40,105 bases of DNA, taken from the IMG/VR virus record IMGVR_UViG_2537562190_000015, one strand, 5' to 3'. The notes below the pieces were generated by a model that did no database searches, had not been told where the DNA came from, and worked only from the letters and a program-made list of their open reading frames with translations. Positions 9,860 through 12,213 of this stretch are shown piece after piece. The first letter of the stretch is position 1, and each line of letters begins with the position of its first letter. Source of the stretch: a virus. Lineage: Duplodnaviria > Heunggongvirae > Uroviricota > Caudoviricetes. The position numbers and the translations under genes were made by a program.

Positions 9860-12213
9860 ACGATGTTAATCACCACATGGTTATTCTGCTCAAACGTCCC
9901 GGACGCCTGCGACCGGCTGTCTGCCATGCTGCCCGGTGTACCGACATAACCGCCGGTGGCATAGCCGCGCATCAGCCGGTAAAGATTCCCCACGCCAATC
10001 CGGCTGGTTGCCTCCTTCGTGAAGACAAACTCACCACGGTGAACAATCCCCGCTGGCTCATATTTGCCGCCGGTTCCCGTAAATCCTCCGGTTGCAAAAT
10101 GGAATTTCGCCGCAGCGGCCTGAATGGCTGTACCGCCTGACGCGGATGCGCCGCCACCAACAGCCCCGCCAATGGCGCTGCCGATACTCCCGACAATCCC
10201 ACCATTGCCTGCTTAAGCAGAATTTCTGTCATCATGGACAGCACGGAACGGGTGAAGCTGCGCCAGTTCTGCTCACTGCCGGTCAGCATCGCCGCCATAT
10301 TCTGTGCAATACCATCAAAGGTCTGCGTGGCTGCACTTTTTACCTGCGACATACTGTCCGTGGCGCTCTCTTCCCACTCACTCCAGCCGGACTTCAGGCC
10401 TGCCATCCAGTTCCCGCGAAGCTGGTCTTCAGCCGCCCAGGTCTTTTTCTGCTCTGACATGACGTTATTCAGCGCCAGCGGATTATCGCCATACTGTTCC
10501 TTCAGGCGCTGTTCCGTGGCTTCCCGTTCTGCCTGCCGGTCAGTCAGCCCCCGGCTTTTCGCATCAATGGCGGCCCGTTTTGCCCGTTGCTGCTGTGCGA
10601 ATTTATCCGCCTGCTGCGCCAGCGCGTTCAGGCGCTCCTGATACGTAACCTTGTCGCCAAGTGCAGCCAGCTGGCGTTTGTACTCCAGCGTCTCATCTTT
10701 ATGCGCCAGCAGGGATTTCTCCTGTGCAGACAGCTGGCGACGTTGCGCCGCCTCCTCCAGTACCGCGAACTGACTCTCCGCCTTCCACAAATCCCGGCGC
10801 TGCTGGCTGATTTTCTCATTTGCTCCGGCATGCTTCTCCAGCGTCCGGAGTTCTGCCTGAAGCGTCAGCAGGGCAGCATGAGCACTGTCTTCCTGACGAT
10901 CGCCCGCAGACACCTTCACGCCGGACTGTTTCGGCTTTTTCAGCGTCGCTTCATAATCCTTTTTCGCCGCCGCCATCAGCGTGTTGTAATCCGCCTGCAG
11001 GATTTTCCCGTCTTTCAGTGCCTTGTTCAGTTCTTCCTGACGGGCGGTATATTTCTCCAGCGGCGTCTGCAGCCGTTCGTAAGCCTTCTGCGCCTCTTCG
11101 GTATATTTCAGCCGTGACGCTTCGGTATCGCTCTGCTGCTGCGCATTTTTGTCCTGTTGAGTCTGCTGCTCAGCCTTCTTTCGGGCGGCTTCAAGCGCAA
11201 GACGGGCCTTTTCACGATCATCCCAGTAACGCGCCCGCGCTTCATCGTTAACAAAATAATCATCCTTGCGCAGATTCCAGATGTCGTCTGCTTTCTTAAA
11301 CGCAGCCTCTGCCTTAATCAGCATCTCCTGCGCGGTATCAGGACGACCGATATCCAGCACCGCATCCCACATGGATTTGAATGCCCGCGCAGTCCTGTCT
11401 GCCCAGGTCTCCAGCGTGCCCATGTTCTCTTTCAGGCGGCGGGTCTGGTCATCAAACCCTTTCGTTGCGGCCTCGTTCGCCGCCTGCAATGCCCCGGCTT
11501 CATCGCCGGAACGCTGCAACTGAGCAACATACGCAATCTGCTCCGTCGTCACGTTATGGAACTGGCGTGCCATCGCCGTCAGCCCCGACGTCGGGTCTGT
11601 GGTCAGCTTCCCGAAGGCTTCAGCGACCTTGTCCACCTCCACGCCGGATGCAGAGGAGAAACGCGCCACACTCTGGCTGATGGACGCAATCTGAGCCTCA
11701 CCGCTTACCCCCGCCTTAACCAGTGCGCTGAGTGACTCGCTGGTCTGGTTAAACGTCAGCCCTGCCGCCTGCCCGGCTCTGGACAGGACCAGCATACGAT
11801 CTGCCGTCAGTCCCGCCTGATTGCCGGAAAGGACCAGCGTTTTGTTGAAATCGGACAGGGTTGAGTTGCCCTGATACCAGGCATACGCCAGCGCACCGGT
11901 CGCCACCGCCAGCGAGGTGGCCCCCCTGTTGCAGCAGGATCAGCCACGGACTTTGCCCGCCTGCAAGCTGCGTGGCCACGTCGGTGAACTGTGCAGGCAG
12001 CATACGCATGGCGGCTTTATACTGCCCGACGGAAATCCCCGCTTTCTGTGCAGCCAGCGCCTGTCGGCTCAGCGACTGTTCAACGACTGCCGCTGTTTTT
12101 TTCGCATCACTTTCCGTACCGGAAAAATGACGCCTGACTCTGGCCATCTGCTCGTCAAATCTGGCCGCATCCAGACTCAAATCAACGACCAGATCGCCTA
12201 CCGGTTCAGCCAT
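9856..12213 (-). pseudogene. H: tail tape measure protein H, disrupted (two frame breaks plus C-terminal truncation at loxP)
   Basis: N-terminal frame (MAEPVGDLVVDLSLDAARFDEQ...LILLQQGG) breaks near 11910-11925 at a G/C6 run. The middle 570 aa are lambda H-like. A second break near 10195-10205 (GGG run) moves the true C-terminal sequence (IVGSIGSAIGG...GYATGGYVGTPGSMADSRSQASGTFEQNNHVVIN) into another frame, which ends with a stop inside loxP. Confidence 0.8.

Follow-up and report, generated by a model that had tools for sequence, protein, structure and literature searches.

The tape measure gene H of the prophage studied here carries two frame breaks that are real and are very probably natural lesions, inherited in a lambda-like prophage at the argU/intD site of the ST17 lineage of Escherichia coli, and a case of ordinary prophage decay. 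We observed the exact sequence of the lesions, their co-occurrence and their distribution directly. In the window, by which we mean the whole 40,105-nucleotide stretch of DNA that was analysed, H lacks 80 bp at one G run and a single G at a second run ~1.7 kb downstream, and the same pair of lesions recurs in natural isolates.

Identity of the prophage and its H gene

The window (1-40105) spans almost exactly one prophage, from a tail-fibre assembly gene to intD beside tRNA-Arg. It is the same as positions 571967-612436 of NC_013353.1 (E. coli O103:H2 str. 12009) except for 10 SNPs, one 1-bp indel and a loxP scar. In strain 12009, the prophage adjoins tRNA-Arg, starts with intD and carries the DLP12-type genes quuD, essD, rrrD, rzpD, bor, ybcV, ybcW and nohD, after which comes a head and tail module ~99.7% identical to that of lambda. 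On these sequence grounds, we assign the window to a lambda-like prophage at the argU/intD (DLP12) site in the O103:H2/O45:H2 ST17 lineage of E. coli, not to phage lambda. Compared with the DLP12 remnant in K-12, it is a full-length relative whose head and tail module is lambda-like; among its cargo genes are bor, lom, a porin and a PerC-family regulator. At window positions 27824 and 27842, it differs from strain 12009 by two SNPs, which fall in opposite arms of a GC-rich palindrome, GGGGCGTTGCAACGCCCC; the palindrome has T runs on its flanks and lies between quuD and the porin gene. The stem of the window version is longer by one G-C and one G-T pair, and the variant looks like a compensated variant of a bidirectional terminator.

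An earlier note on this DNA had measured the gene against lambda H; it is not lambda H itself but the orthologue of H in the lambda-like prophage at the argU/intD (DLP12) site. The T-H region (2,540 nt) has 0 gaps relative to NC_013353.1 and NZ_CP027388.1, whereas the alignment to lambda that the note had proposed contains 9 mismatches, one 80-bp gap and one 1-bp gap. RefSeq, through PGAP, lists the gene in strain 12009 (ECO103_RS31230, NC_013353.1 599860-602340) as a pseudogene, "phage tail tape measure protein, frameshifted". No other morphogenetic gene of the prophage is marked as a pseudogene in that annotation, and in other records PGAP divides it into two pseudogene fragments.

The closest intact allele that we found, WP_000840244.1 (853 aa), occurs in strains FORC_041 and JL05, in a related intD-site prophage whose G, T and M proteins are identical. 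The pseudogene has diverged very little: over 2,350 nt, two indels and one SNP (window 11349) are all that separate the window's H from the FORC_041 allele. The FORC_041 prophage (NZ_CP016628.1; 19381-19712 in our locus L008) has a frameshifted head-decoration gene of its own and an IS3 insertion. Since that prophage is damaged elsewhere than in H, members of this prophage family decay at different genes.

Reading frames and domains of H

The native remnant of H, a pseudogene, occupies 9864..12213 and is read on the minus strand from 12213 to 9864, with two indel lesions relative to both WP_000840244.1 and lambda H. Its assignment as the tape measure gene rests on G-T-H-M-L synteny and on the Pfam domains TMP_2 and Tape_meas_lam_C. 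The authentic N-terminal segment (codons 1-98, 11921..12213, minus strand) belongs to an ORF that starts with ATG at 12213, reads MAEPVG...LILLQQGG and then runs out of frame, staying open only until the stop at 11751-11749. The authentic body (codons 125-698, 10201..11920, minus strand) falls within the mechanical ORF 9972..11906 and is shifted to the +1 frame with respect to the start codon; this frame, which reads ATSLAVATGALAYAWYQGNSTLSDF..., is open from 11939 to a stop at 9974-9972. Alignment and the stop-codon map together place the authentic C-terminal segment (codons 700-810, IVGSIGSAIGG...NNHVVIN) at 9865..10197 on the minus strand, back in the start-codon frame, which stays open from 10212 until the TAA at 9858-9856. 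This closing TAA is itself part of the loxP scar.

No continuous frame passes through H on the stop-codon map, which instead has three frame segments with stops between them, including ~31 stop codons in the start-codon frame between the two breaks. The earlier note had placed the N-terminus and the body in different frames and the authentic C-terminus out of frame after a second break, and both statements agree with the ORFs and the map. It had also named an intact, continuous H frame as the finding that would count against it; alignment yielded none, and the breaks hold.

The Pfam matches follow the same division. TMP_2 profile positions 2-48 are matched in the first ORF, and positions 82-207 together with Tape_meas_lam_C in the second, so that the TMP_2 domain is divided between ORFs at the 80-bp deletion. 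The two TMP_2 matches score 69.7 and 118.8 bits in the two ORFs (cut-off 30.2), and Tape_meas_lam_C scores 74.2 bits (cut-off 23). Both domains that mark the gpH family are therefore present above their gathering scores. The gene also lies where gpH genes lie, between the G/T chaperone genes and M-L-K-I-J, as judged from the annotation of the natural prophage and from the T and L ORFs that flank H in the window. The single continuous ORF of ~853 codons expected of the family was not found. The window's H is a member of the gpH family by descent and a pseudogene rather than a functional member.

Two lesions at G runs

At the first break, 80 bp have been deleted. The window has CAGGGGGGCC at 11928-11919, which contains the G6 run at 11921-11926 (minus strand) that forms the deletion junction. 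Alignment to lambda (J02459 10835-10914) and to the FORC_041 allele, which is intact, shows exactly 80 bp to be absent. The missing stretch begins with base 3 of codon 98 and ends with base 1 of codon 125, such that Q99-G124 (26 codons) and 2 nt are gone. The earlier note had estimated by length that about 26 codons (~77-79 bp) were missing between G-rich microhomologies; the codon count and the microhomology stand, and the size is corrected to 80 bp. The sequence CAACAGGGGGGGCAGG...(80 bp)...GGTGGGGGCCACC of intact alleles is reduced to CAACAGGGGGGCCACC in the window.

The intact allele has G7 on the left and G5 on the right of the deleted interval, and the junction is accordingly ambiguous over 5 nt (GGGGG). 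As is characteristic of microhomology deletions, both lambda and FORC_041 have two copies of GGGGG spaced 80 nt apart, one at each end, and the window has kept one copy at the junction. By our own estimate, 5 nt of microhomology at a random junction would be expected well under 1% of the time. We infer from the G-run microhomology that the deletion was slipped-strand or microhomology-mediated. A 79-bp deletion between 6-nt GGGGGC repeats was considered and rejected, as the observed 6-G junction fits the 80-bp register with 5 nt of microhomology.

At the second break, GTGGGGATT has lost one G and become GTGGGATT, with GGG at 10198-10200 (minus strand). The window has GTGGGATTG at 10202-10194 where intact alleles have GTGGGGATTG. 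This 1-bp deletion from GGGG is the second frameshift and falls at codon 699. Two breaks at G runs, the second near 10195-10205 and one G short, are what the earlier note had described, and alignment to lambda and to the FORC_041 allele bears this out at both places.

Distribution of the lesions and the question of assembly error

Both breaks lie at G runs, as would be seen if they were long-read homopolymer errors in an assembly of a gene that is really intact. Each lesion was looked for in IMG/VR, in 50,697 phage records and in 5,426 complete E. coli genomes. The genomes and phage records were screened with a 60-mer across the deletion junction and a 51-mer across the GGG run built so that the G4 allele cannot seed a match. 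The junction 60-mer was matched exactly in 24 of the 5,426 complete genomes, one copy per genome, and the GGG 51-mer was matched exactly in the same 24 accessions; as these carriers are clonally related, they count as independent sequencing evidence and as one evolutionary event. A single-lesion allele was sought among the 5,426 complete genomes and none was found, the two sets of 24 accessions being identical. Both lesions are also found together in one IMG/VR contig, which comes from an isolate genome. Each genome with this allele contains 5-8 H-like places.

The carriers were isolated from humans, cattle, veal, pork and swine and are without any loxP. Their serotype labels, where given, are O103:H2, O103, O45:H2 and one O121. 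Among them are strain 12009, whose genome (2009) was presumably Sanger-sequenced, and seven closed genomes. These seven represent clades C1-C5 of the major O103:H2 (ST17) lineage, and four of them are Illumina+ONT hybrid assemblies (PMC12831630). The O121-labelled carrier (NZ_CP193494.1, strain WL1277) has the same prophage with both lesions. The lineage may have switched serogroup in this strain, the label may be wrong, or the defective prophage may have been transferred horizontally.

Beyond the position of the breaks, the window offers one further reason to suspect its assembly. On the minus strand, a T5 run has become T4 at 20389-20392 (ORF 20382..22043), a private 1-bp deletion whose frameshift shortens the large terminase subunit from 641 codons to 553. 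This indel is present in 0 of the 24 close relatives, and its 50-mer is shared with a single unrelated genome, that of ESBL 15. The deletion may be genuine, and then a second packaging defect, or it may be an error of homopolymer assembly; a private homopolymer indel of this kind means that the window assembly is not guaranteed to be error-free. The lesions in H are a different case. One of them is an 80-bp deletion rather than a homopolymer miscount, and both recur unchanged in the IMG/VR contig and in 24 complete genomes that were sequenced independently, some of them Illumina-polished hybrids, with 0 gaps across H between the window and the carriers. Because the lesions are reproduced across independent genomes, we reject an assembly artefact, the alternative that the earlier note had raised for the two homopolymers, as extremely improbable.

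Neither the junction 60-mer nor the GGG 51-mer matched any of the 50,697 phage records, which fits the lesions being incompatible with a free-living phage. The distribution also bears on whether the breaks might be functional, through programmed frameshifting or transcriptional slippage, a phase-variable contingency tract or a split tape measure. Two features of the sequence lend themselves to such a reading. First, the N-terminal and body frames overlap, both being open over 11939-11752, and the overlap contains the G6 run, at which +1 re-pairing of tRNA-Gly is conceivable. Second, the C-terminal segment is in the starting frame again, because 80+1=81 bp were lost. However, the segment is unreachable since stops intervene, and with ~31 in-frame stops between the breaks the sum of 81 bp carries no functional weight; by chance alone, one total in three would be divisible by three. 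Two recoding events would be required, moreover, the second at a G3 run without a slippery motif, whereas intact orthologues are one 853-aa ORF and the arrangement occurs in no isolated phage among the phage records. We consider functional breaks highly implausible. A programmed ribosomal frameshift as in lambda G/GT was rejected as a candidate, given that intact homologues are single ORFs and no phage record has the two-ORF arrangement. A phase-variable contingency locus was likewise rejected, given that the G6 and G3 tract lengths are invariant in 24/24 genomes.

The loxP scar

The 3' end of H was lost to a third lesion of a different kind. A 42-nt engineered scar, TCGT-loxP-TACG, lies at 9822..9863 (no strand assigned) and contains a single, perfect copy of loxP at 9826-9859. 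The scar was found in none of the matched complete E. coli genomes (5,426 screened), in none of the 50,697 phage records and nowhere in IMG/VR. The window contains no FRT site, and our search of the literature on loxP, prophage and O103 returned nothing relevant. The scar stands in for 405 bp, comprising the last 43 codons of H (codons 811-853) and codons 1 to about 93 of M, and its practical effect is that M is removed too. As the scar is unique to the window, the source strain is an engineered derivative of an O103:H2/O45:H2-lineage strain.

With this prophage copy evidently manipulated only 340 bp downstream, the two frame breaks might themselves have come from the loxP engineering or have arisen in a laboratory strain. 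We regard such an origin as very remote. Wild human, cattle, veal, pork and swine isolates without loxP carry both lesions, and the deletion junction is a natural G-run microhomology with no exogenous sequence. The earlier note had counted three independent lesions in H, including the loxP truncation. Three lesions there are, although their origins differ, two being natural and lineage-wide and only the scar being specific to the window. The scar is a laboratory modification on an already dead natural pseudogene.

Origin and consequences of the lesions

With natural, inherited decay as the preferred reading, the following course of events is suggested. The 80-bp deletion, which removed residues 99-124 and shifted the frame, most likely formed between the two G runs by replication slippage or by microhomology-mediated joining across GGGGG. 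The loss of one G from the G4 run ~1.7 kb downstream shifted the frame again. Both lesions were very probably passed on vertically and are shared across the clonal lineage, and the loxP scar would have come afterwards, when engineering altered a gene that had already lost its function. Starting from the ATG, translation is predicted to yield 98 authentic and 56 out-of-frame residues and no full-length tape measure.

In lambda, gpH is the tape measure needed for tail tube assembly. Because no full-length tape measure would be made, the prophage alone is expected to be unable to build tails or infectious particles, judging from the role of lambda gpH. It is also imaginable that the lesions are a selectively retained "grounding" mutation, whereby ST17 keeps an almost complete 40-kb prophage for its cargo (bor, lom, the porin and the PerC-family regulator) while spread occurs via a co-resident lambdoid tape measure acting in trans or via recombinational repair. 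We put this forward as speculation and consider it unlikely.

That H is a pseudogene was already known, as RefSeq flags it as frameshifted in natural strains, and no new mechanism is involved. The finding is biologically minor, amounting to textbook prophage decay at homopolymer and microhomology sites. Its value lies in separating the H breaks from assembly error and from engineering, and in identifying the window as a prophage of the O103:H2/O45:H2 lineage and not phage lambda. The 80-bp junction and the GGG allele together also provide a specific marker (24/5,426 genomes) for the parent lineage of the loxP-bearing strain.

Comparison with known systems

The nearest counterparts of the window's H are ECO103_RS31230 and the corresponding genes in the 23 other complete genomes. 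They carry both lesions, lie in the same argU/intD prophage between the same flanking genes and align over 2,540 nt with 0 gaps. Relative to them, the window adds the 42-nt loxP scar and the private frameshift in the large terminase. The FORC_041/JL05 allele (WP_000840244.1) belongs to the same morphogenetic module and is one SNP from the window outside the indels, but it retains the 80 bp (G7...G5) and the G4 run and is consequently one continuous ORF.

Lambda gpH (J02459 10542-13103, 853 aa) shares ~99.7% nucleotide identity, the G-T-H-M-L order and the same Pfam domains with the window's H. Unlike it, the lambda gene is intact, and 7 SNPs within H set it apart, with 4 amino-acid changes relative to the FORC_041 allele. 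The surroundings differ as well, with the window's prophage being of the DLP12 type (intD, quuD, essD, rrrD, rzpD, bor and nohD).

Lastly, the ST17 prophage resembles the pools of defective lambdoid prophages in EHEC, where point defects in morphogenetic genes are found and several related lambdoid prophages are co-resident (PMC2669165). That work (Asadulghani et al. 2009) concerns O157 Sakai rather than the lineage studied here. Co-resident prophages in O157 Sakai complement the defective lambdoid ones, which can still be packaged and transferred (PMC2669165). By analogy, trans-complementation or recombinational repair of the ST17 prophage is conceivable.
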